A stretch of DNA of 64,000 bases from NCBI RefSeq assembly GCF_963921235.1, contig NC_086108.1, forward strand, positions 19,964,001 to 20,028,000. Direction: 5' to 3'. Below are positions 8,988 through 64,000 of this stretch, one piece after another. The notes under the pieces were generated by a model that saw only the letters and a program-made list of their open reading frames with translations, did no database searches and was not told the DNA's origin. Source of the stretch: Mobula hypostoma (lineage: Eukaryota). The position numbers and the translations under genes were made by a program. The stretch's first letter is position 1, and each line of letters opens with the position of its first letter.

Positions 8988-9620
8988 GTATGATTTCTCT
9001 GTTTTGCGTGCATGTAACCATTAACATTATAAATCACGTTACCACAATTAATGTATACTTTGTGAACAGTTACAGACTTACTTGGATATACAGTTTCTTA
9101 GCCCTCAGTTTAACAATTTGTTTCAATTTTTCGTTCTGAATTCACAAGTTGCCGAACATTTGATCAAAGGTTTAAGTTGTTGTTTTAATAAAAACCTATA
9201 GTAGAAAACATGAATGTGAGCATCACATGGCCATGTTTCCTTTGGGAGTTGTACTATAAAGGACAGAAACATTTAAACAGGTGGAGGGGAGGTGGTGTCA
9301 GGCCTCAGTCACATACCTGATAATTATAACTTTGAAATAGAATAGACATTCTGGTTGAGGAATCTTTGAGTCACTGGAAGTATACTGATCTGCTGCCTTA
9401 ACAAATGAAATGGTGCTTTCACTTGATAAATAATAGGCTTGCATACGAGTTCACATTCCAACTCAGCTGTTTAAAATATAAGATGTAGAAGAGGAGAAAT
9501 GAAAAGAAGAAACTAAAAGCTGAATATTACAGGCTGCATCTCTCCTGAGTGGCAGCTTGAGAACACATCTCTTGCCTATCTTTGTGCACAATGATGTAGA
9601 AGAATTTTAAGAGTGACTAT

Positions 9621-11561
9621 TTGGCAGATAATGTAACTCGGCTACTCAGTATAATTCATTTGGCACAAAAAAGGGATGAGAAGAGTATAGTAGTAGCTTT
9701 GGATGCAGAAAAAGCATTTGATAGATTAGAATGGGATTTTTTATTTAAAGTACTAGAAAAATATGGGTTAGGAACATCTTTTATAAATTGGATTAAAACT
9801 TTAAATTCTAACCCTAAAGCTAAAGTGGTGACAAACTCTCAAATTTCAACACCATTCCAGTTAAAAAGGTCAACTAGACAAGGTTGTCCACTATCACCTG
9901 CTTTATTTGTATTGGCGATAGAGCCATTAGCAGAACTAATTAGAATTGATCCAGATATTATGGGTTTTAGAGTTAATCAGGAGGAATATAAAATTAATCT
10001 TTTTGCCGATGATGTTTTGATCTATTTAACAAATCCACAATATTCGTTATATAAATTATCTTCTAGATTGGATGAATATGGGAAGGTATCAGGTTACAAA
10101 ATAAATTGGGATAAAAGTGAAATTTTACCTCTTACTAAAGGAGATTATAGTCAATGTCAATTAGTAACCCAATTTAGATGGCCAGTAAATGGTATAAAAT
10201 ATTTAGGTATAAAACTTGATAATGATCTAAAGAATTTATATAAATTTAATTATTTACCACTATTGAAAAAAATTCAAGAAGATCTTGACAAATGGATGAT
10301 ATTACCAATAACATTAGTAGGTAGAGTCAATGTTGTAAAAATGAATATATTTCCTAGATTACAGTATCTGTTTCAAACATTACCAATAGAATTGCCACAG
10401 AAATTTTTTCAAGAGTTAAATAAATGTGTGAGAAAATTTCCTTGGAAAGGTAAAATGTCAAGAATATCATTGGAAAAATTGACGTGTAAATTTGGGTTAG
10501 GAGGGTTACAACTTCCAAACTTTAAAAACTATTATAAAGCAAATCAACTTAGATTTATTGCATCTTTCTTCGATGATCAAAAACCAGCATGGATTAAAAT
10601 AGAACTAGACAAGATGGGAGAAAATAGACCTGAAGATTTTATATATAAATGGGAATCTAAATTGATACGGGAAAAGAAAGAATCTCCTATATTAACACAT
10701 TTGATTGATCTATGGAATAAGATAAATGTTGATAATGAAACACAGAAATCTCTATTAGCAAGGAGACCTTTGTTCCAAAACAGACTTATTCCTTTTACAA
10801 TGGACAATCAACTTTTATATAATTGGTACCAAAAAGGGATTAAATTTATAGGAGATTGTTTTGAACGAGGTATATTGATGTCATTTGAACAATTGAAGGA
10901 TAAATATAAAATATCTAGTAATACTTTCTTTTGTTACTTTCAATTAAGGGCTTACTTAAAAGGTAAGCAGGGTCAAAGAATGTTTTTGCCAAAACCTAAT
11001 GAAATTGAAATTTTAATCCAAAAAGGGAAAATTAAAAAATTTATTTCTTGTATGTATAATTTGATTCAAGAACAGACAATTAAACAAGGAACCCATAAGT
11101 CAAAGCAAAAATGGGAAACAGATCTGAATATTATTATTGATGAAACAAATTGGTCAAGACTTTGTCTTGACAGTATGACAAATACAATAAATGTTCGACT
11201 TAGATTAGTACAATATAATTTTTTACATCAATTATATATTACACCGCAAAAAATAAATAGATTAAATTCAAATTTTTCTGATAAATATTTTCGGTGTAAT
11301 CAAGAAATTGGTACTTTTTTACATTCTACTTGGTCTTGTTTTAAAATTCAACCCTTTTGGATAAATTTAAGAATCTTATTGGAACAAATTACTGCAATTC
11401 AACTTCCACAACTTCCACATAACCCTGTATTATTTTTATTAGGTGATATTGAAGGGATAAAACCGAAACTTAAATTGAATAAATATCAGAAAGAATTTAT
11501 AAAAATTGCATTGGCAGTAGCTAAGAAGACTATAGCAGTTACTTGGAAATCTGATTCGTAA
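9621..11561 (+). pseudogene. L1 ORF2 C-terminal portion (reverse transcriptase and C-terminal domain)
   Basis: Motifs LDAEKAFD, RQGCPLSP, LFADD, SGYKINWDKS, KYLGI, GGLQLP and HxxWSC. Premature TAA at 11559. Confidence 0.92.
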
Positions 11562-14490
11562 TTAAGTATGGATTGTTGGAATAATGAAATGGCTAGTTCT
11601 ATTCCACTTGAAAAAATTACTTATAATTTAAGAGATAAATATGTAACATTTTTGAATATTTGGCGCCCTTATTTACAAAAGATAGGATGGCATATTTAAG
11701 TGCTCCGATAAAGACTTTGGTCACTTGGGGAAAGTAACGAATAATTATACCAAATTCATTTTGAATCCCATGGAGCATGTGGAAACCTTCCAATAACCAG
11801 GCGGTTCTTTTCTTTTTTTTTCTTTTTCTTTCTTTTTAGGTAGGAGATAGTATTAAACAGGAAATTAGAAATGTGTGCAATAAAGGAACAGCAGTTATAA
11901 TGGGTGACTTCAATCTACATGTAGACTGGGTGAACCAAATTAGTAAAGGTGCTGAGGAAGAGGATTTCTTGGAATGTATGCGGGATGGTTTTTTGAACCA
12001 ACATGTCGAGGAACCAACTAGAGAGCAGGCTATTCTGGTCTGGGTTTTGAGCAATGAGGAAGGGTTAATTAGCGATCTTATCGTGAGAGGCCCCTTGGGT
12101 AAGAGTGACCATAATATGGTGGAATTCTTCATTAATATGGAGAGTGACATAGTTAATTCAGAAACAAAGGTTCTGAACTTAAAGAGGGGTAACTTTGAAG
12201 GTATGAGACGTGAATTAGCTAAGATAGACTGGCAAATGACACTTAAAGGATTGACGGTGGATATGCAATGGCAAGCATTTATAGGTTGCATGGATGAACT
12301 ACAACAATTGTTCATCCCAGTTTGGCAAAAGAATAAATCAAGGAAGGTAGTGCACCCGTGGCTGACAAGAGAAATTAGGGATAGTATCAATTCCAAAGAA
12401 GTAGCATACAAATTAGCCAGAGAAAGTGGCTCACCTGAGGACTGGGAGAAATTCAGAGTTCAGCAGAGGAGGACAAAGGGCTTAATTAGGAAGGGGAAAA
12501 AAGATTATGAGAGATAACTGGCAGAGAACATAAAAACGGACTGTAAAAGCTTTTATAGATATGTAAAAAGGAAAAGACTGGTAAAGACAAATGTAGGTCC
12601 CCTGCAGACAGAAACAGGTGAATTGATTATGGGGAGCAAGGACATGGCAGACCAATTGAATAATTACTTTGGTTCTGTCTTCACTAAGGAGGACATAAAT
12701 AATCTTCCAGAAATAGTAAGGGACAGAGGGTCCAGTGAGATGGAGGAACTGAGTGAAATACATGTTAGTAGGGAAGTGGTGTTAGGTAAATTGAAGGGAT
12801 TGAAGGCAGATAAATCCCCAGGGCCAGATGGTCTGCATCCCAGAGTGCTTAAGGAAGTAGCCCAAGAAATAGTGGATGCATTAGTGATAATTTTTCAAAA
12901 CTCGTTAGATTCTGGACTAGTTCCTGAGGATTGGAGGGTGGCTAATGTAACCCCAATTTTTAAAAAAGGAGGGAGAGAGAAACCGGGGAATTATAGACCA
13001 GTTAGCCTAACGTCGGTGGTGGGGAAACTGCTGGAGTCAGTTATCAAGGATGTGATAACAACACATTTGGAAAGCGGAGAAATGATCGGACAAAGTCAGC
13101 ATGGATTTGTGAAAGGAAAATCATGTCTGACGAATCTCATAGAATTTTTTGAGGATGTAACTAGTAGAGTGGATAGGGGAGAACCAGTGGATGTGGTATA
13201 TTTGGATTTTCAAAAGGCTTTTGACAAGATCCCACACAGGAGATTAGTGTGGAAACTTAAAGCACACGGTATTGGGGGTAAGGTATTGGTGTGGGTGGAG
13301 AATTGGTTAGCAGACAGGAAGCAAAGAGTGGGAATAAACGGGACCTTTTCAGAATGGCAGGCAGTGACTAGTGGGGTACCGCAAGGCTCAGTGCTGGGAC
13401 CCCAGTTGTTTACAATATATATTAATGACTTGGATGAGGGAATTAAATGCAGCATCTCCAAGTTTGCGGATGACATGAAGCTTGGCGGCAGTGTTAGCAG
13501 TGAGGAGGATGCTAAGAGGATGCAGGGTGACTTGGATAGGTTGGGTGAGTGGGCAAACTCATGGCAGATGCAATTTAATGTGGATAAATGTGAAGTTATC
13601 CACTTTGGTGGCAAAAATAGGAAAACAGATTATTACCTGAATGGTGGCCGATTAGGAAAAGGGGAGGTGCAACGAGACCTGGGTGTCATTATACACCAGT
13701 CATTGAAAGTGGGCATGCAGGTACAGCAGGCGGTGAAAAAGGCGAATGGTATGCTGGCATTTATAGCGAGAGGATTCGAGTACAGGAGCAGGGAGGTACT
13801 ACTGCAGTTGTACAAGGCCTTGGTGAGACCACACCTGGAGTATTGTGTGCAGTTTTGGTCCCCTAATCTGAGGAAAGACATCTTTGCCATAGAGGGAGTA
13901 CAAAGAAGGTTCACCAGATTGATTCCTGGGATGGCAGGACTTTCATATGAAGAAAGACTGGATGAACTGGGCTTGTACTCGTTGGAATTTAGAAGATTGA
14001 GGGGGGATCTGATTGAAACGTATAAGATCCTAAAGGGATTGGACAGGCTAGATGCAGGAAGATTGTTCCCGATGTTGGGAAGTCCGGAACGAGGGGTCAC
14101 AGTTTGAGGATAGAGGGGAAGCCTTTTAGGACCGAGATTAGGAAAAACTTCTTCACACAGAGAGTGGTGAATCTGTGGAATTCTCTGCCACAGGAAACTG
14201 TTGAGGCCAGTTCATTGGCTAAGTTTAAGAGGGAGTTAGATATGGCCCTTGTGGCTACAGGGGTTAGGGGGTATGGAGGGAAGGCTGGGGCGGGGTTCTG
14301 AGTTGGATGATCAGCCATGATCATAATAAATGGCGGTGCAGGCTCGAAGGGCCGAATGGCCTACTCCTGCACCTATTTTCTATGTTTCTATGACTATATA
14401 TGGGGGGGGGAGGGTTAAGGGGAGGGGGGAGGGTAGATTCTTTTTTTCATATATTCTTTTTGAAAATTCAATAAAAATTATATTAAAAAA
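9622..14490 (+). mobile_element. 5'-truncated L1-clade LINE in a KLHL20 intron (sense), with nested CR1
   Basis: 646-aa RT ORF, G-rich 3' UTR, AATAAA and A-tail. TSD agtgactatt at 9612-9621 and 14491-14500, at a TT/AA target. Confidence 0.93.
11838..14392 (+). mobile_element. Young 5'-truncated CR1 LINE nested in the L1 3' UTR
   Basis: ORFs 11873-12517 and 12623-14107 are in the same frame, separated by one stop; one frameshift near 14082. RT motifs GVPQGSVLGP and FADD; (ttctatgt)n tail. Confidence 0.95.
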
Positions 14491-34765: not shown

Positions 34766-37440
34766 AAATAGAAACATAGAAAACCTACAGCACAATACAG
34801 GCCCTTCCGCCCACAAAGTTGTACCGAATATGTCCCTACTTTAGAAATTATTAGGCTTACACATAGCACTCTATTTTTCTAAACTCCATGTACCTATCCA
34901 AAAGTCTCTTAAAAGACTCTATTGTATCCGCCTCCACCACCGTTGTCGGCAGCCCATTCCACGCACTCACCACTCTCTGCTTAAAACAAAATACATACCA
35001 CTGACACCTCCTCTGTACCTACTAAAAAAGAACCCGCATTTACCACCTCATCTGGAATGAGCTGCCAGATGAGGTGGTAAATGCGGGTTCTTTTTTAACA
35101 TTTAAGAATAAATTGGACAGATACATGGATGGGAGGTGTATGGAGGGATATGGTCCGTGTGCAGGTCAGTGGGACTAAGCAGAAAATGGTTCGGCACAGC
35201 CAAGAAGGGCCAAAAGGCCTGTTTCTGTGCTGTAGTTTCTATGGTTTCTATGGTTTTCTACTCCCCAGCACCTTAAACTTATGTCCTCTTGTGGCAACCA
35301 TTTCAGCCCTGGAAAAAAGCCTCTGACTATCCACACGATCATTGCCTCTCATCATCTTATACATCTCTATCAGGTCACTTCTCATCCTCTGTCGCTCCAA
35401 GGAGAAAAGGCCGAGTTCACTCAACCTGTTTTCATAAGGCATGCTCCCCAATCCAAGCAACATCCTTGTAAATCTCCTCTGCACCCTTTCTATGGCTTCC
35501 ACATCCTTCCTGTAGTGAGGTGACAAGAACTGAGCACAGTACTCCAAGTGGGGTCTGACCAGGGTCCTATATACCTGCAACATTACCTCTCGACTTCTAA
35601 ATTCAATTCCACAATTAATGAAAGCCAATACACCGTATGCCTTCTTAACCACAGTCAACCTGCGCAGCTGCTTTGGGCGTCCTATGGACTCGGACCCCAA
35701 GATCCCTCTGATCCTCCACACTGCCAAGAGTCTTACCATTAATACTATATTCTGCCATCATATTTCAGCTACCAGAATGAACCACCTCACACTTATCTGG
35801 GTTGAACTCTATCTGCCACATTTCAGCCCAGTTTTGCACCCTATCAATGTCCCGCTGTAACCTCTGACAGCCCTCCACACTATCCACAACACCCCCAACC
35901 TTTGTGTCATCAGCAAACTTACTAACCCATCCCTCCACTTCCTCATCCAGGTCATTTATAAAAGTCACAAAGAGTAAGGGTCCCAGAACAGATCCCAGAG
36001 GCACACCACTGGTCACCGACCTCCATGCAGAATATGACTCGTCTACAACCACTCTTTGCCTTCTGTGGGCAAGCCAGTTCTGGATACACAAAGCAATGTC
36101 CCCTTGGATCCGATGCTTCCTTACTTTGTCAATAAGCTTTGCATGAGGTACCTTATTAGATACCTTGCGCTACATCTACTGCTCTTCCTTCATCAATGTG
36201 TTTGGTCACATCCTCAAAAAATTCAATCAGGCTCGTAAGGCACAGCCTACCCTTGACAAAGCTATGCTGACTATTCCTAATCATATTATACCTCTCCAAA
36301 TGTTCATAAATCCTGCCTCTCAGGATCTTCTCCATCAACTTACCAACCACTGAAGTAAGACTCACTGGTCTATAATTTCCTGGGCTATCTCTACCCCCTT
36401 ACTGCTCCTCAATATCCCTGTTACTATTGAGCGGCCTATAAAAAACACCCAGTAGAGTTATTGATCCCTTTCCTGTTCCTAACCTCCACCTACAGAGACT
36501 CCATAGACAATTCCTCCATGACATCTACCTTTTCTGCAGCCGTGACACTATCTCTGATCAACAGTGGCACGCCCCCACCTCTTTTGCCTCCCTCCCTGTC
36601 CTTTCTGAAACATCTAAAACCCGGCACTTGAAGTAACCATTCCTGTCCTTAAGCCATCCAAGTCTCTGTAATGGCCACCACATCACAGCTCCAAGTACTG
36701 ATCCATGTTCTAAACTCATCCGCTTTGTTCACAATACTCCTTGCGTTAAAATAGACACATCTCAAACTGTCCATCTGAGCATGTCCCTTCTCTATCACCT
36801 GCCTATCTTCCCTCACATACTGTCTCCAAGCTTTCTCTGTTTGTGAGCCAACTGCCTCATCCCCAGTCTCTTCAGTTCGGTTCCCACCCCTCAACAATTC
36901 TAGTTTAAACTCTTCCCCAGTAGCCTACCCGCCAGGATATTGGTCCCCCTGGGATTCAAGTGCAACCGATCCTTTCTGTATAGGTCACACCTGCCCCAAA
37001 AGAGGTTCCAATGATCCAGAAACCTGAATCCCTGGCCTCCAATCCCTCAGCCATGCATTTATCCTCCACCTCATTCTATTCCTATACTGTTGCGTGGCAC
37101 AGGCAGTAATCCTGAGATTACTACCTTTGTGGTCCTGCTTCTCAACTTCCTTCCTAACTCCCTGTAGTCTTTTTTCAGGACCTCTTCCCTTTTCCTACCT
37201 ATGTCATTGGTACCAATATGTACCATGACCTTTGGCTGTGCTCCCTCCCACTGCAGGATACCTTGGACGCAATCTGAAACATCCCAGACCCTGGCACCCA
37301 GTGGGCAAACTACTATGCGAATTTCTTTTCTGTGTCCACAGAATTGCCTGTCTGACCTTCTAACTATAGAGACCCCTATCACTACTGCCTTCCTCTTCCT
37401 TTTCCCTACCTTTCTGAGCCACAGGGCTGGACTCTGTGCG
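34766..37440 (-). mobile_element. CR1 LINE (part of ORF1 plus ORF2) with an internal deletion near 36400 and a nested CR1 3' end
   Basis: Esterase remnant VHIGTND, endonuclease start NARSI...ETW, RT FADD, atagaaac tail. Confidence 0.92.
35024..35257 (+). mobile_element. Short CR1 3' end with fold-back 5' inversion
   Basis: ttctatgg tail; ctact duplicated at 35019-35023 and 35258-35262. Confidence 0.8.
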
Positions 37441-41268: not shown

Positions 41269-41850
41269 CTGCAGGAGGAGGTAAAAATTAGCACTCGATA
41301 AACCAAGTAATTCCATTGCTTACACCAAGGTTTGTAAACATTTTTTAAAACATGCTTATTCTGTTTCCACCATTCCATTTTTTCCCACCCAAATTATTAT
41401 CACCTAATTTTCAGATTCAACAGTAAAACTATGAAAATAGACAAGCAAAAATTTACTCCAGATACCCCTTTCAATCCACAAACAATGCACATCCTTTGGT
41501 TCCTAAACATTTTAATTCTCTCTGCTCCCTGTGACACCTTTATATTCTGCACCCTCTCTGTTGGATTCAGAGTCAAACCAGGCAGCACAGAAGTGCTATG
41601 GTTGACTCGGCTTAAGGAAATGACTTGTGTATATAGCAGGCTAATAAGCATGGTTCTTAGAAGATACTCTCTCTCAAGAAAAAAGTTTGTTGTTCTGACG
41701 AGTATATTCAACGTTTTAAATCCATTTGCTGTTGCTGTTCAAAATATTTTTGTATTTTTTTTATTTATTAGAAAGAACAGCATTTCTAAGCTTCCTTTTC
41801 AAATGTAAGGCTTCAACAAATGCACATTTTCTTAGGACCCTTGCGAGATA

Positions 41851-43577
41851 AGTTGGAAAAGTGTGTATGGAACCGGAGGAAATAGCGAAGGTACTTAATG
41901 AATACTTTCCTTCAGTATTCACTACGGAAAAGGATCTTGGCGATTGTAGGGATGACTTGCAGTGCACTGAAAAGCTTGAGAATGTAGGTATTAAGAAAGA
42001 GGACGTGCTGGAGCTTTTGGAAAGCATCAAGTTGGATAAGTCACCGGGATCGGACGGGATGTACCCCAGGCTACTGTGAGAAGCAAGGGAAGAAATTGCT
42101 GAGCCTCTGGCAATGATCTTTGTATCATCAATGAGGACGGGAGAGGTTCCGAGGATTGGAGGGTTGCGGATGTTGTTCCCTTATTTAAGAAAGGAAGTAG
42201 AGGTAGCCCAGGAAGTTATAGACCAGTGAGTCTTACTTCAACGGTTGGTAAGTTGATGGAGAAGATCCTGAGAGGCAGAATTTATGAACATTTGGAGAGG
42301 CATAATATGATTAGGAATAGTCAGCATTGCTTTGTCAAAGGCAGGTCGTGCCTTACGAGCCTGAGTGAATTTTTTGAGTATGTGACTAAGCACATTGATG
42401 AAGGTAGAGCCGTAGATGTAGTTTATATGGATTTCAGCAAGGCATTTGATAAGGTACCCCAGACAAGGCTTATTGAGAAAGTAAGGAGGCATGGGATCCA
42501 AGGGGATATTGCTTCGTGGATCCAGAACTGGCTTGCCCACACAAGGCAAAGAGTGGTTGTAGACGGGTCATATTTTGCATGGAGGCCGGTGACCAGTGGT
42601 GTGCCTCAGGGCTCTGTTCTGGGACCCCTTCTCTTTGTGATTTTTATAAATGTCCTGGATGAGGAAGTGGAGGGTTGGATTAGTAAATTTGCTGATGACA
42701 CAAAGGTTGGGGGTGTTGTGAATAGTGTGTTGGGCTGTCAGATGTTACAACAGACATTGATAGGATGCAAAACTGGGCTGAGAAGTGGCAGATGAAGTTC
42801 AACCCAGATGGTTCATTTTGGTAGTTCAAATATGATGGCAGAATATAGTATTAATGGTAAGACGCTTGGCAGTGTGGAGGATCAGAGGGATCTTGGGGTC
42901 CAAGTCCATAAGACACTTAAAGCTACCACGCAGGTTGACTCTGGTTAAGAGGGCATACGATGCATTGGCCTTCAGTCGTGGGATTGAGCTTAAGAGCAGA
43001 GAGGTAATGTTGCAGCTATGTAGGACTCTGGTCAGACCCCATTTGGAGTACTGTGCTCAGTTCTGGTCGCCTCACTCTGGGAAGGATGTGGAAACCATAG
43101 AAGGGGTGCAGAGAAGATTTATAAGGATGTTGCCTGGATTGGGGGGCATGCCTTATGAGAATAGGTTGAGTGAACTTGGCCTTTTCTCCTTGGAGCGATG
43201 GAGGATGAGAGGTAACCTGATAGAGGTGTACAAGATAATGAGAGGCATTGATAGTGTGGGCAGTCAGAGGCTTTTCCCCAGGGCTGAATTGGCTAGCATG
43301 AGAGGGCATAGTTTTAACATGCTTGGAAGTAGGTACAGAGGAGATGTCAGGGGTAAGTTTTTTTTTTTACGCAGAGAGTGATGAGTGCGTGGAATGGGCT
43401 GCTGGCGGCGGCGGTGAAGGCGTTAACGATAGGGCCTTTTAAGAGACTCTGGATGGCTAAATGGAGCTTAGAAAAATAGAGGGCTATAGGTAGAGCCTAA
43501 GTGGTTCTAAGGTAGGGACATGTTTGGCACAGCTTTGTGGGCCAAAGGGCCTCTATTGTGCTTTCTAGGTTTCTATA
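41851..43577 (+). mobile_element. 5'-truncated CR1 LINE in the last CENPL intron (antisense)
   Basis: RT ORFs 42226-42795 and 42854-43381; ttctaggtttctat tail. Confidence 0.93.
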
Positions 43578-43654
43578 AATCAACATTAACCAAGAAATCG
43601 AGATTAGTGCAACAGAATTTCAAAGAGTTTAAAAGTGAGCAGAGTTGAAAAGGC

Positions 43655-43772: not shown

Positions 43773-46700
43773 GCGACGGTTATTTCTTCAGCGGTTTGAA
43801 TGGGGCACAACTGCACAAGCGATGGAGGTCGGCCAGTGAGAACAGCGGGAAGAGTTTAAAAGGAAGACAGATTTATAGAGCGGTCGTTGGAGTGGGTGAC
43901 AGTAGTGGGAGACAGAGTAGGAAGGCTTTGGCTCAACGGGGCTTAGGCAATAAGGGGTTGAGGCCAGGTAGGTTATCTGTTTGAAATAAAAAAACAAAGT
44001 ATGTGTGTGAGGCCGGACGACCACATCTGCACCAGGTGCGTTGAACTGCAGCTCGATGACCTTCGTCCAGTCAGGGAGAGTGAGGAGGTGATAGAGAGGA
44101 GCTATAGGCAGGTAGTCGCCCTGGGACCGCAGGAGACTGAGAAGTGGGTAACAGTCAGGAGAGGGAAGGGCAAGAAGCAGGTACTAGAGAGTACCCCAAT
44201 GGCGGTCTCCCTTAACAATAAGTATTCCTGCTTGAGTACTGTTGGGGGGAACGGCCTACCTGGGGGAAGCAACAGTGGTCGCGTCTCTGGCACAGAGTCT
44301 GGCCCTGTGGCTCAGAAGAATGGGGAAAGGAAGAGGATGGCAGCAGTGATAGGGGACTCTATAGTTAGGGGGTCAGAAAGGCGATTCTGTGGACGCAGGA
44401 AAGAAACGTGGATGGTAATTTGCCTCCCAGGTGCCAGGGGTCTGGGATGTTTCTGATTGCATCCATAATATCTCGAAGTGGGAAGGAGAACAGCCAGAGA
44501 TCGTAGTACATATTGGTACCAACGACATAGGTAGGAAAAGGGAGGAGGTCCTGAAAACAGGTTACAGGGAGTCAGGAAAGAAGTTGAGAAGCAGGACCTC
44601 AAAGGTAGAAATCTCGGTATTACTGCCTGTGCCACGCGACAGTGAGTACAGGAATAGAATGAGGTGGAGGATAAATGCGTGGCTGAGGGATTGGAGCAGG
44701 GGCAGGGATTCAGATTTCTGGATCATTGGGACCTCCTCTGGGGCAGGTGTGACCTGTACAAAAAGGGCGGGTTGTGCTTGAATCCCAGGGGAACCAATAT
44801 CCTGGCGGGAAGGTTTGCTAAGGCTATTGGGGAGAGTTTAAACTAGAACTGCTGGGGGGTGGGAACCGAACTGAAGTGACGGAGGAAAGGGAAGTTGGCT
44901 TACAAATAGAGGAGACAGTGTGAAAGGGAGGATAGGCAGGTGATAGAGGAGGGACGTGCTGAGTCTGATGGTTTGAGATATGTCTCTTTTAATGCGAGGA
45001 GTATCATGAATAAAACGGATGAGTTTAGAGCGTGGACCAGAACTTTGGCCATTACAGAGACTTGGATGGTGCAGGGGCAGGAATGGCTACTTCAAGTGCC
45101 AGCTTTAGATGTTTCAGAAAGGATAGGGAGGGAGGCAGAAGAGGTGGGAGCATGGCACTGTTGATGAGAGATAGTGTCACGGCTGCAGAAAAGGAGGAAG
45201 TCATGGAGGGGTTCTCTACAGAGTCTGTGGGTGGAAGTCAGGAGTAGGAAGGGGTCAATAACTCTACTGGGTGTTTTTTATAGACCACCCAATAGTAACA
45301 GGGACATCGAGGAGCAGATAGGGAGACAGATTCTGGAAAGGAGTAATAATAACAGGGTTGTTGTAGTGGGAGATTTTAATTTCCCAAATATTGATTGACA
45401 TCTCCCTAGAGTGAGGGGTTCAGATGGGGTAGAGTTTGTTAGGTGTGTTCAGGAAGGTTTCTTGACACAATATGTAGATAAGCATACAAGAGGAGAGGCT
45501 GTACTTGATCTGGTATTGGGAAATTAACCTGGTCAGGTCTCTCAGTGGGAGAGCATTTCGGAGATAGTGATCACAATTCTATCTCCTTTACCATAGCATT
45601 GGAGAGGGATAGGAACAGACAAGTTAAGGAAACTTTTAATTGGAGTAAGGGGAAATATGAGACTATCAGGCAGGAACTTGGAAGCATAGATTGGAAACAG
45701 ATGTTCTCAGGGAAATGTTTGGAAGAAATATGGCAAATATTCAGGGGATATTTGCGTGGGGTTCTGAGTAGGTACGTTCCAATGAAACATAGAAAGGATG
45801 GTAGGGTACAAGATCTGTGGTGTACAAAGGCTGTTGTAAATCCAGTCAAGAAGAAAAGAAGAGCTTACGAAATGTTCAAAAAACTAGGTAAGTTAGGATA
45901 GGAATCTAGAAGATTATAAGGCTAGCAGGAAGGAGCTTAAGAATGAAATTAGGAGAGCCAGAAGGGGTCATGAGAAGGAATTGGCGGACAGGATTAAGGA
46001 AAACCCCAAGGCATTCTACAAGTATATGAAGAGCAAGAAGATAAGACGTGAGAGAATAGGACCAATCAAGTGTGAGAGTGGAAAAGTGTGTACGGAACTG
46101 AAGGAAATAGCAGAAGTAAACATAGAAACATAGAAAATAGGTGCAGGAGTAGGCCATTCGGCCCTTCAAGCCTACACCGCCATTTATTATGATCATGGCT
46201 GATCATCCAACTCAGAACCCTGCCCCAGCCTTCCCTCCATACCCCCTGACCCCCATAGCCACAAGGGCCATATCTAACTCCCTCTCAAATATAGCCAATG
46301 AACTGGCCTCAACTGTTTCCTGTGGCAGAGAATTCCACAGATTCACCACTCTCTGTGTGAAGAAGTTTTTCCTAATCTCGGTCCTAAAAGGCTTCCCCTT
46401 TATCCTCAAACTGTGACCCCTCGTTCTGGACTTCCCCAACATCGGGAACAATCTTCCTGCATCTAGCCTGTCCAATCCCTTTAGGATCTTATACGTTTCA
46501 ATCAGATCCCCCCTCAATCTTCTAAATTCCAACGAGTCCAAGCCCAGTTCATCCAGTCTTTCTTCATATGAAAGTCCTGCCATCCCAGGAATCAATCTGG
46601 TGAACCTTCTTTGTACTCCCTCTATGGCAAGGATGTCTTTCCTCAGATTAGGAGCCCTTTGTCCTCCTCTGCTGAACTCTGAATTTCTCCCAGTCCTCAG

Positions 46701-48416
46701 GTGAGTTACTTTCTCTGGCTAATTTGTATGCTTCTTCTTTGAAATTGATACTATCATTAAGTATTGTACTTAATGAATAGAGTATTCACTATGGAAAAGG
46801 ATCTTGGCGATTGTAGGGATGACATGCAGTGGACTGAAAAGCTTGACAATGTAGATATCAAGACAGAGGATGGTGCTGGATCTTTTGGAAAGCATCAAGT
46901 TGGATAAGTCACCGGGACCGGACGGGATGTACCCCAGGCTACTGTGGGTAGTGAGGGAGGAGAATGCTGAGCCTCTGGCAAAGATCTTTGCATCATTAGT
47001 GAGGACTGGAGAGGTTCCGGAGGATTGAAGGGGTGCAGATGTTGTTCCCTTATTCAAGAAAGGGAGTAGGGATAGCCTGAGAAATTATAGGCCAGTGAGT
47101 CTCTCTTCAGTGGTTGGTAAATTGATGAAGATGATCCTGAGAGGCAGGATTTATGAACATTTGGAGAGGCATAATATGATTAGGAATAGTCAGCATATCT
47201 TTGTCAAAGGCAGGTCGTGCCTTACAAGCCTGACTGAATATTGAGGACGTGTCTAAACACGTTGATGAAGGTGGAGCCGTAGATGCAGTGTATATGGACT
47301 TTAGCAAGTCATTTGATGAGGTACCCTATGCAAGGCTTATTGAGAAAGTAAGGAGGCATGGGAGGCATAGGATCCGAGGGGGACATTGCTTTGTGGATCC
47401 AGAACTGACTTGCACACAGAAGGCAAAGAGTGGTTGTAGACAGGTCATATTCTGCATGTAGGCCGGTGACCAGTGGTGTGCCTCACAGGGATCTGTTCTG
47501 GGACCCCTTCTCTTTGTGATTTTTATAAATGACCTGGATGAGGAAGTGGAGGGTTGGGTTAGTAAATTTGCTGATGACACAAAAGTTGGATGTATTGTGG
47601 ATAGTGTGGAGGGCTGTCAGAGGTTACAACGGGACATTGATAGGATGCAGAACTGGGCTGAGAAGTGGCAGATGGAGTTTAACCCAGATAAGTGAGGTGG
47701 TTCATTTTGGTAGCGTGGAGGATCAGAGGGATCTTGGGGTCCGAGTCCATAGGACACTCAAAGCTGCTACGCAGGTTGACTCTGTAGTTAAGAAGGCATA
47801 CGGTGCATTGGCCTTCATCAATCGTGGGATTGAGTTTGAGAGCCGAGAGGTAATGTTGCAGCTATGTAGGACCCTGGTCAGACCCCACTTGGAGTACTGT
47901 GCTCAATTCTGGTCGCCTCACTACAGGAAGGACGTGGAAACCATAGAAAGGGTGCAGAGGAGATTTACAAGGATGTTGCCTGGATTGGGGAGCATGCCTT
48001 ATGAGAATAGGTTGAGTGAACTTGGCCTTTTCTCCTTGGAGTGATGGAGGATGAGAGGTGACATGATAGAGGTGTACAAGATAATGAGAGGCATTGATTG
48101 TGTGGATACTCAGAGGCTTTTTCCCAGGGCTGAAATGGCTAGCACAAGAGGGCATAGTTTAAAGGTGCTTGTTAGTAGGTACAGAGGAGATATCAGGGGT
48201 AAGTGTTTTTTACGCAGAGAATGATGAATGTGTGGAATGGACTGCCAGCGACGGTGGAGGCGGAAAGGATAGGGTCTTTTAAGAAACTGCTGGATGGCTA
48301 CATGGAGCGTAGAAAAATACAGGGCTATGGGTAAAGCCTAGGTCTAAGGTGGGGACATGTTCGGCACAGCTTTATGGGCTGAAGGGCTTGTATTGTGCTG
48401 TATATTTTCTATGGTT
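43773..48416 (+). mobile_element. Near full-length, decayed CR1 LINE (5' UTR, ORF1 zinc finger/esterase, ORF2 endonuclease-RT)
   Basis: ORF1 motifs CTRC, GDSI and GTND; ORF2 motifs NARSI, GDFN, SDH and FADD. Multiple frameshifts; interrupted at 46118-46766. Confidence 0.93.
46118..46755 (-). mobile_element. Young CR1 3' fragment inserted inverted in an older CR1
   Basis: Near-identical reverse complement of 13862-14392 joined directly to 12380-12482. Confidence 0.93.
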
Positions 48417-49839: not shown

Positions 49840-51253
49840 CTGTTAGAAAGCAGAAAAACACAAGTTCAGATATTAATTTATTTCCCTTTGTCCTTACTCC
49901 TACAAAATTTTGTACAAGACTCATTCTAAAATAATTTGGTCAGTGGTCATTCCATATGTACTGAAATACACAATATTTGGACAATATGTAACTTAATTAT
50001 TCTAAAGAGAAATGGAGCCTTGTTAATCTCTAGGGATGCAGAAGCCAATAATTTTATCCTATCCAGTGGGGATAAGAATAATAGAATGACTTGGCAGATG
50101 AACTGTATTAGGGAGAAAGGTTTCAGATTCTGGGTCATTGGGATCTCTTCAAGGGAAACTATAACCTGTACAAAGAGATGGAGAACCCGAGGGAGACCAA
50201 TATGATTGCAGGCAGGTTTGCCAGAGCTGTTGGGGAGGATTTAAAGTAGTTTGGCAGTGGGATAGCAACCAAAGTCATGGACCTGGGAATAGTCAGGCCA
50301 CATGGAGTATTGTCAAAAGTTTTGGGCCCCATATCTCAGAAAGGATGTGTTGTCATTGGAGAGAGTCCAGAGGAGGTTCACGAGGATGATTCTGGGAATG
50401 AAGGGGTTAACATGAGGAGTGATTAGCAGTTTTGGGCCTGTACTCACTGAAATTTAGAAAAATTGGTGGGGATTTCATTGAAACCTACCAAATGTTGAAA
50501 GGATTAGATAGGGCGGATGTGAAAAGGATGTTTCCTGTGGTGGGGGTATCAGAACTAGAAAGCACAACCTCAAAATTGAGGGGCAACCTTATAGAACAGA
50601 AGGAGAATTTATTTTAGCCAGAGAATAGTGAATCTGTGGAATGCTCTGTCACAGACTGCAGTGGAGGCCACATCCGTGGGTATATTTGAGGCGGAAGTTG
50701 ACCGTTTCCTGGTTGGTCAGAGCATCGAAGGATATGGCGAGAAGGTAGGTGTACGTGGTTAAGTAGGAACTGGGATCAGCCATGATAGAATGGTGGAGCA
50801 GATTCAATGGGCTGAAAGGCCTAATTCTGCTCCTATGTCTTATGGACACAGGGTTGATGCAGTGTGTAGAGACTGAGCAATGGATAGGACATAATGGCAG
50901 TCAGTTGGATGGGTTGAAATGTGTCCATTTTAATGAAAGAAACAGCATGAATAAGGGTGATGAACTTAGAGCATGGGGTCTGTAAATGGAACAAGGACAT
51001 TTGCGCCAGTAGAAACATGGTCGTCATAAGGGCAGGAATGGCTGCTTGATGTTCCAGGATTTAGATGTTTCAAGAGGCACAGGGTGGGAGGTAAGAGGTA
51101 AGGAAGTGGCATTATTAATCAAGGAGTGTATCACAGCTGCAGAAAAGGAGCAATCATTCTATTGGGAGTATTCTATAGACACTCCCCTCCCATAGCAGGA
51201 GACACTGTGAAGATTGGGAGATAGATTTTGGAAAGATGCAAAAATAACAGGGT

Positions 51254-61835: not shown

Positions 61836-62115
61836 CATTTTTCTCGGCGGTTGATCAGGGCAGGACTGAGCAATTGCGTGCAAGTCAGTCCGTGAGTCAA
61901 CGGGAGTATTTAAAAAAGAGCAGTTTGACGGAGCAGGCGACGGAGTAGAGGGAGACAGAGTAGGAAGGCTTTGGCTCAAAAGGCTTCGGCGAGCAGAGGC
62001 TGAGGACGAGCAAGTGAGGTAGGGCTGGGTAAGTTCCTTTAAAAGGAGAACTGTCTGCAGTGGTATTTTATTTGAAGCAAGGAAGGCGGCGAGTCTGTAG
62101 TGTATTGGGTAGGTC

Positions 62116-63063
62116 ATGACAGCTGAGATCTGCCCCGTAGTTTGTTCCTCCTGCAGCATGTGGGAAATCAGGGATACTTCCAGTGTCCCTGACGACAATG
62201 TGTGCAGAAAATGTGTCCAGCTGCAGCTTCTGGCAGACTGCATTGAACAGCTGGAGCTGCAATTGGATTCATACTGGAGCATCCGCGATGCTGAGAAAGT
62301 TGTGAATAGCACGTTCAGTGAGTTGGCCACACCGCAGGTAAAGGCTACCCAGGCAGAAAGGAAATGGGTGGCCACTAGACAGCATAGCAGTAGGCAGGTA
62401 GTGCAGGAGTCCCCTGAGGTCATCTCCCTCCTAAACAGATATACTGTTTTGGAAACTGTTGGGGGAGATGTCTCATCAGGGGAAGGCAGCAGCAACCGAG
62501 TTCATGGCACCATGGGTGGCTCTGCAGCACAGGAGGGAAGGAAAAGGAGTGGGAGAGCTATAGTGATAGGGGATTCGATTGTAAGGGGAATAGATAGGTG
62601 TTTCTGCGGCCACAAACGAGACTCCAGGAGGGTATGTTGCCTCCCTGGTGCAAGGGTCAAGGATGTCTCTGAGCGGCTGCAGGACATTCTGGAGTGGGAG
62701 GGTGAACAGCCAGTGGTCGTGGTGCACCTAGGTACCAATGATATAGGTAAAAAATGGGATGAGGTCCTACAAGGTGAGTTTAGGGAGTTAGGAGATAAAC
62801 TAAAAAGTAGGACCACAAAGGTAATAATCTCTGGATTACTACCAGTGCCACGTGCTAGTCAGAGTAGAAATAGGAGGATATTTCAGATGAATATGTGGCT
62901 TTAAATATGGTGCAAGGGGGAGGGATTCAAATTTCTGGGGCATTGGAACCAGTTCTGGAGGAGGTGGGACCGGTACAAACAGGACAGTCTGCACCTGGGC
63001 TGGACTGGAACCAATGTCCTAGGGGGAGCGTTTGCTACTGTTGCTCAGGAGGATTTAAACTAA
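62116..63063 (+). pseudogene. CR1 ORF1: C4 zinc finger, leucine zipper and SGNH esterase, with one premature stop at 62902
   Basis: CSSC...CRKC, GDSI and GTND motifs. The frame continues past the stop through DSLHL to TAA at 63061-63063. Confidence 0.9.
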
Positions 63064-64000
63064 TGTGGCAGGGGGATGGGAACAAGTGCAGAGAGACAGA
63101 GGGGTGTAAAATGAGGGTAGAAGCAAAAAGTAGTAAGGTGAAAAGTAAAAGTGGCAGGCTTGCAAATCCAGGGCAAAAATCAAAAAGGGCCACTTTTCAA
63201 CATAATTGTATAAGGGCTAAGAGTGTTGTAAAAGCAAGCCTGAAGGCTTTGTGTGTCAATGCAAGGAGCATTTGTAACAAGGTGGATGAATTGAATGTGC
63301 AGATAGTTATTAATGAATATGATATAGTTGGGATCACAGAGACATGGCTCCAGGGTGACCAAGGATGGGAGCTCAACATTCAGGGATATTCAATATTCAG
63401 GAGGGATAGACTTGAAAGTAAAGGAGGTGGGGTGGCATTGCTGGTTACAGAGGAGATTAACGCAATAGAAAGGAAGGACATTAGCCGGGAGGATGTGGAA
63501 TCGATATGGGTAGAGCTGCATAACACTAAGGGGCAGAAAACGCTGGTGGGAGTTGTGTACAGGCCACCTAACAGTAGTAGTGAGGTTGGGAATGGCATTA
63601 AACAGGAAATTAGAAATGCATGCAATAAAGGAACAGCAGTTAAAATGGGTGACTTCAATCTACATATAGATTGGGTGAACCAAATTGGTAAGGGTGCTGA
63701 GGAAGAGGATTTCTTGGAATGTATGCGGGATAGTTTTCTGAACCAACATGTTGAAGAACCAACTAGAGAACAGGCCATTATGGACTGGGTATTGAGCAAT
63801 GAGGAAGGGTTAGTTAGCAATCTTGTCGTGCGAGGCCCCTTGGGTAAGAGTGACCATAATATGGTGCAATTATTCATTAAGATGGAGAGTGATATAGTTA
63901 ATTCAGAAACAAAGGTTCTGAACTTAAAGAAGAGTAACTTTGAAGGTATGAGATGTGAATTAGCTAAGATAGACTGGCAAATGATACTTAAAGGGGTGAC
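63063..64000 (+). CDS. CR1 ORF2 N-terminus (APE endonuclease), open to the window end
   Basis: Manual translation has no stops: NARSI, ITETW, GGGVALL, YRPP, GDFN, SDH. It is in the -1 frame relative to ORF1. Confidence 0.88.
   Translation, partial: MWQGDGNKCRETEGCKMRVEAKSSKVKSKSGRLANPGQKSKRATFQHNCIRAKSVVKASLKALCVNARSICNKVDELNVQIVINEYDIVGITETWLQGDQGWELNIQGYSIFRRDRLESKGGGVALLVTEEINAIERKDISREDVESIWVELHNTKGQKTLVGVVYRPPNSSSEVGNGIKQEIRNACNKGTAVKMGDFNLHIDWVNQIGKGAEEEDFLECMRDSFLNQHVEEPTREQAIMDWVLSNEEGLVSNLVVRGPLGKSDHNMVQLFIKMESDIVNSETKVLNLKKSNFEGMRCELAKIDWQMILKGV

Follow-up and report, generated by a model that had tools for sequence, protein, structure and literature searches.

The closest described relatives of the element studied here are the canonical vertebrate CR1 long interspersed nuclear elements (LINEs). 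In these, the first open reading frame (ORF1, type IVB; CR1 subgroup 7 in PMC4120745; surveyed in PMC13343379) encodes a Cys-rich/zipper region and an SGNH esterase, and is followed by an ORF2 encoding an APE endonuclease and a reverse transcriptase (RT). CR1-group elements have been described as the dominant retrotransposons in most vertebrate species (PMC13343379), and the translation of LINE ORF2s has been called an open question (PMC3894237), the models in the sources consulted being restart models drawn from L1 and SART1. The main texts of PMC4120745 and PMC13343379 contain neither "frameshift" nor "overlap" and do not address ORF2 production. The DNA analyzed here, referred to as the window, is a stretch of 64,000 nucleotides (nt) of Mobula hypostoma (NCBI RefSeq assembly GCF_963921235.1, contig NC_086108.1, positions 19,964,001 to 20,028,000 of the forward strand). 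It holds CR1 copies with the same ORF1 and ORF2 domains, and a programmed -1 ribosomal frameshift at the end of their ORF1 probably produces an ORF1-ORF2 fusion protein, as judged from the sequence of the junction between the two frames.

Both viruses and Dictyostelium LINEs offer precedents for frameshifting by -1. Viral and retroviral sites of the infectious bronchitis virus type carry the same U_UUA_AAC heptamer in the correct phase, with a structural gene upstream and a polymerase gene downstream (PMC3542737, PMC5009743); these sites have a stem-loop or pseudoknot 5-9 nt on, whereas the CR1 junction has an adjoining stop codon and a G-run instead. The APE-type non-long-terminal-repeat retrotransposons TRE5-A and TRE3-A of Dictyostelium are said to depend on a -1 frameshift to express ORF2 (PMC5911963), but they are amoebal, and their ORF1 is described in that source only as of unknown function. 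LINEs of Paramecium have been proposed to use a +1 shift or readthrough (PMC5405496). SART1 (UAAUG stop-start) and mammalian L1 (termination-reinitiation) likewise have a bicistronic LINE RNA and low ORF2 output, and one copy in the window shares the TAATG of SART1; SART1 and L1, however, make a separate ORF2 protein (ORF2p), and in CR1 the heptamer is conserved and the AUG is not. No description of CR1 frameshifting was found in the literature searched (PMC11835228 included, as well as a portion of PMC5009743 that does not contain "CR1"), a scope excluding Haas 2001, Kapitonov and Jurka 2003, the 1997 chicken/turtle CR1, pufferfish Maui and 2012 ZfL2-1 papers and supplements, so that an earlier mention is possible.

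The features of the window that bear on the junction are as follows, in window coordinates.

62116 to 63063, plus strand: CR1 ORF1, with a Cys-rich N-terminus, a coiled-coil-like region and an SGNH esterase; interrupted by a premature TAA at 62902-62904.
63054 to 63060, plus strand: slippery heptamer U_UUA_AAC in the phase of ORF1, the predicted -1 shift site.
63061 to 63063, plus strand: ORF1 stop codon TAA adjoining the heptamer; its last A opens an ATG (63063-63065) in the ORF2 frame.
63071 to 63083, plus strand: G-rich box GGGGG-AT-GGG-AAC, a candidate stimulator, starting 10 nt past the heptamer; shark-type and amniote-type junctions have it in register.
63054 to 64000, plus strand: ORF2 in the -1 frame, a 68-codon linker and then the APE endonuclease (NARS at about 63258, codon 69); truncated where the window ends.
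44837 to 44863, plus strand: CR1 junction of a second subfamily, TTTAAAC TAG N7 GGGGGG T GGG; linker frame broken downstream.
36772 to 36909, minus strand: CR1 junction of a sister copy of 44837; the -1 frame reaches the endonuclease without a stop, and its earliest ATG is at codon 46 (36774-36772).
50240 to 50249, plus strand: decayed junction TTTAAAG TAG closing an ORF1 remnant.
11840 to 14107, plus strand: 5'-truncated sister copy of the 63054 subfamily, with RT; 91.6% identity over the shared 418 nt.

In the copy named here after its heptamer at 63054, ORF1 ends in phase as GAT TTA AAC TAA (TTTAAAC at 63054-63060, TAA at 63061-63063), and the -1 frame is open for 315 codons from the heptamer to the window end, endonuclease included. 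An X_XXY_YYZ heptamer thus stands in the phase of the upstream ORF, with the downstream ORF in the -1 frame. This arrangement had been claimed in an earlier model-made note on the same DNA (the original prediction) and was confirmed, as were the T TTA AAC TAG closing ORF1 at 44837-44846 (plus strand) and 36909-36900 (minus strand) and the decayed TTTAAAG TAG at 50240, found at the end of an ORF1 remnant. The 36909 copy had been said to run in its -1 frame into NARS without a nearby ATG; the open frame was found, but the codon-46 ATG lies in frame 9 codons ahead of NARS. Its sister at 44837 does not have that ATG. The 36909 copy has stops in both ORF1 and ORF2. The 44837 copy keeps its -1 frame open for 28 codons and carries its endonuclease in the ORF1 frame, which is consistent with a deletion in the linker. 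Every CR1 copy checked in the window was broken or truncated. The ORF1 DNA of the 44837/36909 subfamily is about 68-70% identical to that of the 63054 subfamily. The string TTTAAACTAR occurred four times in the window, compared to 0.73 +/- 0.81 in shuffles; the fourth match (48602, minus strand) was set aside as chance since it lies outside any ORF1. The extended pattern TTTAAACTAR-N7-GNGGG had three matches in the window and none across all 100 shuffles, a descriptive figure as the pattern was derived from these copies.

The element is a CR1 LINE with an esterase ORF1, the SGNH esterase following a Cys-rich/zipper region and ORF2 carrying APE and RT; the basis of the CR1 grouping is the ORF1 esterase and domain content, with a quick version of an esterase tree. 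In that tree the 63054 ORF1 groups with shark-type and, more weakly, with turtle/lizard-type ORF1s (Shimodaira-Hasegawa-like approximate likelihood ratio test, SH-aLRT, 91), and the nearest named ORF1 proteins are those of sharks and rays. Pfam Lipase_GDSL_2 matched the ORF1 of the 63054 copy at E 9.6e-7, under the family cut-off because the premature stop cuts this ORF1, and a profile of 22 ORF1 relatives matched PDB 4c1b ("ORF1-encoded protein") at E 2.3e-38. The APE domain was found in the 63054 copy itself and the RT domain in the 91.6% identical copy (12518-14104).

Further junctions were taken from metagenome loci found by an esterase profile blind to the junction (80 of 139 confirmed loci were retained). 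ORF1 ended in TTTAAAC TAG in six of the 80 (L003, L004, L006, L009, L011 and L014), and two broken copies, L005 and L052, kept the heptamer after an indel. ORF2 was in the -1 frame in all four TTTAAAC TAG metagenome loci that reach the endonuclease. The quick tree includes six of these eight heptamer loci and places them with ORF1s of turtles and lizards, hence the label "amniote-type". In total 13 junctions were examined: 63054, 36909, 44837, 50240, L002, L003, L004, L005, L006, L009, L011, L014 and L052. Nine junctions align gap-free, with TTTAAACTA invariant, 7 variable bases after the stop and then the G-box. The CR1 junction is real and conserved at the nucleotide level from shark-type to amniote-type elements; conservation of the heptamer and its phase across subfamilies, which the original prediction had set as its own test, held and extended to the amniote-type elements. 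From ORF1 codon usage (TTA 10/103 Leu, AAC 9/26 Asn, T at 25.5% of four-fold sites) the heptamer would be spelled by chance in ~0.9% per lineage.

The -1 frame is open into the endonuclease in eight junctions (63054, 36909, L002, L003, L004, L005, L009 and L011), with the NxRS endonuclease motif at codon 34-91; in 44837, 50240, L006, L014 and L052 it is disrupted, decayed or truncated. A stop in the -1 frame lies 1-5 codons ahead of the heptamer in 8/13 junctions, so ORF2 cannot start upstream in these; an ATG in the -1 frame ~49 codons ahead of the 63054 heptamer was rejected as a general start on the same count. Among the 31 loci with both an ORF1 end and an endonuclease, the endonuclease was in the ORF1 frame in 21, the -1 frame in 6 and the +1 frame in 4; one of the -1 loci and all four +1 loci fall in the in-frame clade described below and look like indel copies. 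No relatives were found in viral contigs (three scans) or plasmids. A scan of prokaryote genomes returned 26 loci, nearly all of them low-identity esterases of bacterial records, and none were used.

Nucleotide-level conservation was also followed in public sequencing reads aligned to the junction seeds 62900-63320 and 63040-63092 (runs X21 and X22; run X23, with 2 aligned reads, was left out). On the longer seed, X21 depth was ~1,280-1,320 over 63050-63079 against ~250-550 on the near flanks, because reads of other subfamilies fit that island only. On 63040-63092, 1,244 reads were aligned in X21 and 203 in X22; 93% of the X21 reads run into unlike sequence, and therefore several subfamilies were sampled. 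Variation within the heptamer in X21 was 1.7% at 63054, 3.3% at 63056, 3.3% at 63059 and 3.9% at 63060, and 1.0-1.2% in X22, figures that cover the positions listed (63055, 63057 and 63058 are absent from the listing) and come from an alignment that favors seed-matching reads, a bias that counts against the frameshift reading. The base before the heptamer (63053) varied in 71.1% of X21 and 9% of X22 reads. The stop codon varied in 2.5-7.0% of X21 reads, at 63063 mostly from TAA to TAG, and beyond it variation was 11.1% at 63064 and 71.5% at 63065 (41% at 63065 in X22). The residue encoded before Leu varies freely in the reads (Asp, Gly, Ala or Val) and its third base stays T; position 63054, the third codon position at this Gly/Ala/Val/Asp residue, is silent in ORF1 and yet fixed. 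The heptamer is kept beyond amino-acid need.

An island of this kind could also act at the RNA or DNA level, as a splice site, a polymerase slippage site or a recombination junction giving an mRNA with ORF2 first or in frame. The 35-nt island is common to subfamilies with differing flanks, TTTAAACTAG has a terminal AG in many copies, and ORF1 modules are reported to have been exchanged between LINE lineages (PMC4120745). We consider this explanation very improbable: TAA is present in 93% of X21 reads, which leaves no AG acceptor, the alignment has no conserved GT after the junction, and no indel or joint was listed at the junction in the four runs of the first read alignment or the two of the second (only one of these was possibly RNA, in the form of contigs, which drop rare forms).

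The ends of ORF1 proteins were compared in two sets. Of the best 56 protein matches, 35 end in L-N and one in I-N, the other 20 being truncated or mixed models by their tails; turtle and lizard ORF1 relatives likewise end in L-N. Among the best 150 cluster representatives, the esterase end is reached by 96, of which 44 terminate in L-N. Another slippery-compatible pair closes 15 of the 52 non-L-N proteins (G-N 10, K-N 3, G-L 1, N-L 1; background 0.044) and 13 of 39 after thinning at 70% tail identity, with P values (~5e-9) that are overstated because the proteins are related. The G-N and K-N ends fit G_GGA_AAC and A_AAA_AAC heptamers, respectively. The DNA representative of the K-N group, L002 (1812-1852), has A_AAA_AAC in the ORF1 phase, ORF2 in the -1 frame and the ORF1 stop 12 codons later, with no AUG ahead of the endonuclease. 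A codon ending in U could encode the residue ahead of L-N in 75/76 proteins and in 31/31 after thinning (P 0.001-0.008); the same codon test on the G-N and K-N proteins gave no significance. The distant ORF1 esterases P0142-P0234 have Q-G-N, S-K-N or F-F-x at their C-termini. P0015, a shark-type CR1 ORF1 ending in L-N, bears the source name "SGNH/GDSL hydrolase family protein [Pseudomonas aeruginosa]", likely through host contamination of the bacterial record.

These protein ends raise the alternative that a Leu-Asn-stop terminus alone is conserved, ORF2 being translated from a downstream AUG or by internal entry and the heptamer arising as a by-product. The prevalence of L-N among the best matches agrees with it, as do the terminal Asn shared by L-N, G-N and K-N and the AUG 9 codons before the endonuclease motif in the 36909 copy. 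We nevertheless hold it to be highly unlikely. It leaves unexplained the fixation of silent positions and a spelling with a chance of ~0.9% per lineage; G or K precedes N in 13/16 of the non-L-N proteins ending in N; one protein group holds K-N in the same place while its stop lies further on; and the sister copy has no codon-46 AUG, nor does L002 have any AUG before the endonuclease.

Besides the read bias given above, several results weigh against a frameshift at the CR1 junction. No slippery pair closes 37 of the 52 non-L-N proteins, the G-N proteins may be one clade, in which case the binomial P is overstated, and the G_GGA_AAC switch is predicted from protein ends, the G-N and K-N alignments being too variable for DNA scans. 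A search for longer proteins, itself weak, gave 6 matches, apparently mixed gene models, and no in-frame esterase-endonuclease-RT fusion lineage. Folds of the 70 and 110 nt past the heptamer in 11 junctions gave z of -1.39 to +2.02, with no unusual stability, and RNAalifold predicted 0 pairs on the junction alignment (no direct pseudoknot model was included); canonical -1 sites are described as requiring a structure 5-9 nt downstream (PMC3542737). An in-frame AUG stands at codon 4-5 in 5/13 junctions (the 63054 copy, L003, L004, L005 and L011), and for SART1 and L1 the accepted mechanism is restart (PMC5009743, PMC1965478, PMC3894237, PMC2881922, PMC7658363).

Termination-reinitiation at the CR1 junction would mean that ribosomes resume at an AUG overlapping or close to the stop, or at a codon other than AUG, with a separate ORF2p made as in SART1 and L1 and the island serving as the restart signal. 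In its favor are the TAATG overlap of the 63054 copy and four amniote-type loci where an AUG follows the stop by 2 nt; SART1 uses UAAUG (PMC3894237), and L1 restart is reported to be AUG-independent (PMC5009743, PMC1965478). A calicivirus-type UGGGA 40-90 nt upstream of the stop was seen in only 1/13 junctions (motif as defined in PMC3542737). Judging by the variation at 63065, at least 71.5% of X21 reads and 41% of X22 reads have lost the AUG of TAATG; 8/13 junctions have no AUG beside the stop, the first AUG being at codon 23 in L009 and at codon 46 in 36909. A conserved ORF2 ATG, named in the original prediction as what to expect if the idea were wrong, was thus not found near the stop. Restart predicts neither a fixed X_XXY_YYZ, nor switches between slippery heptamers, nor a fixed -1 phase, and in L002 the stop lies 12 codons beyond the heptamer. 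Zebrafish ZfL2-1 reportedly needs sequence around its ORF1 stop, a finding interpreted as termination-reinitiation. On this evidence we judge restart an unlikely general route. The original prediction had kept it as an alternative for the subfamily of the TAATG copy, and it may apply where a lineage has its AUG at codon 4-5, although the AUG is not conserved overall; frameshifting and restart could both be usable in some lineages.

As no conserved stem was found, the junction was not classed as a canonical structure-stimulated site, and the downstream pseudoknot proposed in the original prediction did not appear on folding. The conserved features 3' of the heptamer are the adjoining stop and the G-box. 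A G-rich tract had been placed 5-10 nt after the stop; it is present, with its position now refined to 7 nt after the stop and 10 nt after the heptamer. Read in the ORF2 frame the box is xxG-GGG-GAW/GGT-GGG, and since GGG makes up 79/233 Gly codons in these ORF2s, the box points to a nucleotide signal. A G-quadruplex stimulator was rejected, as two-tier forms only were seen, in 4/11 junctions at either length, which is weak support; the quadruplexes shown to stimulate -1 shifts are G3 types with an optimum of 6-8 nt (PMC3919603). Long-range duplexes of the G-box reached -17.5 to -25.3 kcal/mol at best, against -13.0 to -23.1 in simple shuffles, and a candidate partner, a C-rich stretch ~650-690 nt upstream, was hit in three amniote-type loci and not in the rest. 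The proteins hnRNP F/H bind G-runs, and some viral frameshift sites carry a stop directly after the heptamer. Our best guess, and the least certain step of the proposal, is that the adjoining stop, together with a protein bound to the G-run 10 nt downstream, may act as the stimulator in place of a pseudoknot. A structure-free shift with a motif 11 nt downstream is described for nsp2 of PRRSV, the porcine virus of reproductive and respiratory syndrome (PMC7939443), a spacing similar to that of the CR1 G-run, but the likeness is geometric only: the viral motif is C-rich, is bound by nsp1beta and PCBP and directs -2/-1 shifts, whereas the binder of the CR1 G-run is hypothetical.

In related esterase LINEs with ORF2 in the ORF1 frame, a single UGA separates the ORFs in 14/14 in-frame loci with an open linker; its context is UGA-C in 10 and UGA-CUA in 7, and the linker lacks an AUG in 5. 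UGA loci with an esterase ORF1 comprise L008 (415-420), L021 (~2733), L017, L019, L020, L022, L039, L043, L054 and relatives, mostly with UGA-CUA or UGA-CCA. They split into a group near 4c1b (L008, E 7.7e-32), called fish L2-like by ORF1 likeness alone, a set of 40 loci that form one clade and were therefore not counted as independent, and L021, which is outside the tree. UGA-CUA is a type II readthrough motif (PMC3542737), and the UGA-C junctions are candidates for stop-codon readthrough; alignment of the in-frame UGA group revealed no consensus 3' structure. The UGA-joined relatives would fit an ORF1-ORF2 fusion as the general product. In L015 (1097-1108), which is fish L2-like with an in-frame ORF2 and no AUG, UGA-AAU overlaps a mini-ORF, ATG AAA TAG, in another frame.

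If the CR1 junction works by frameshifting, most ribosomes would stop at UAA/UAG and release an ORF1 protein (ORF1p) ending in Leu-Asn, and in a minority the tRNAs would slip back from UUA-AAC and pair with UUU-AAA instead. The shifted ribosomes would cross a linker whose length varies, with NxRS at codon 34-91, before translating the endonuclease and RT, the product being an esterase-endonuclease-RT fusion, and the slip rate would set a high ORF1p:ORF2p ratio, like that of Gag:Gag-Pol. The fusion proposed in the original prediction is thus supported by sequence evidence, from which we infer the slip itself. CR1 would thereby gain a retrovirus-like expression strategy with the esterase, for which a link to membranes has been reported (PMC3905857), tethered to RT. 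The N-terminus now annotated for CR1 ORF2 would move, the set of copies counted as intact would change, and the junction would represent a structure-free eukaryotic frameshift signal. A broader proposal, which we offer tentatively and consider somewhat doubtful as a whole, is that esterase-ORF1 LINEs share a Gag-Pol logic with interchangeable recoding: a -1 shift at U_UUA_AAC in CR1 (replaced in distant lineages by A_AAA_AAC or G_GGA_AAC) and readthrough of UGA-C in the fish L2-like group and a third clade, the CR1 shift being structure-free via the adjoining stop and a protein-bound G-run, possibly bound by ORF1p as feedback.

Other elements were noted in the window. The 653-codon ORF at 9600-11561 (plus strand) belongs to a different LINE with a weak match to CR1 RT (26.9%), which looks L1/Tx1-like. 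Nested or duplicated CR1 RT fragments lie at 45981-48400 and 41850-43580, with 85.8% identity between 41891-43576 and 46766-48412, and a segment in inverted orientation at ~46120-46755 matches the 11840-14400 copy at 96-97% identity. A 62-nt stretch is shared at 84% identity between 43901-43963 and 61944-62005, in the 5' regions of the two CR1 subfamilies ahead of ORF1, and is possibly a promoter element.

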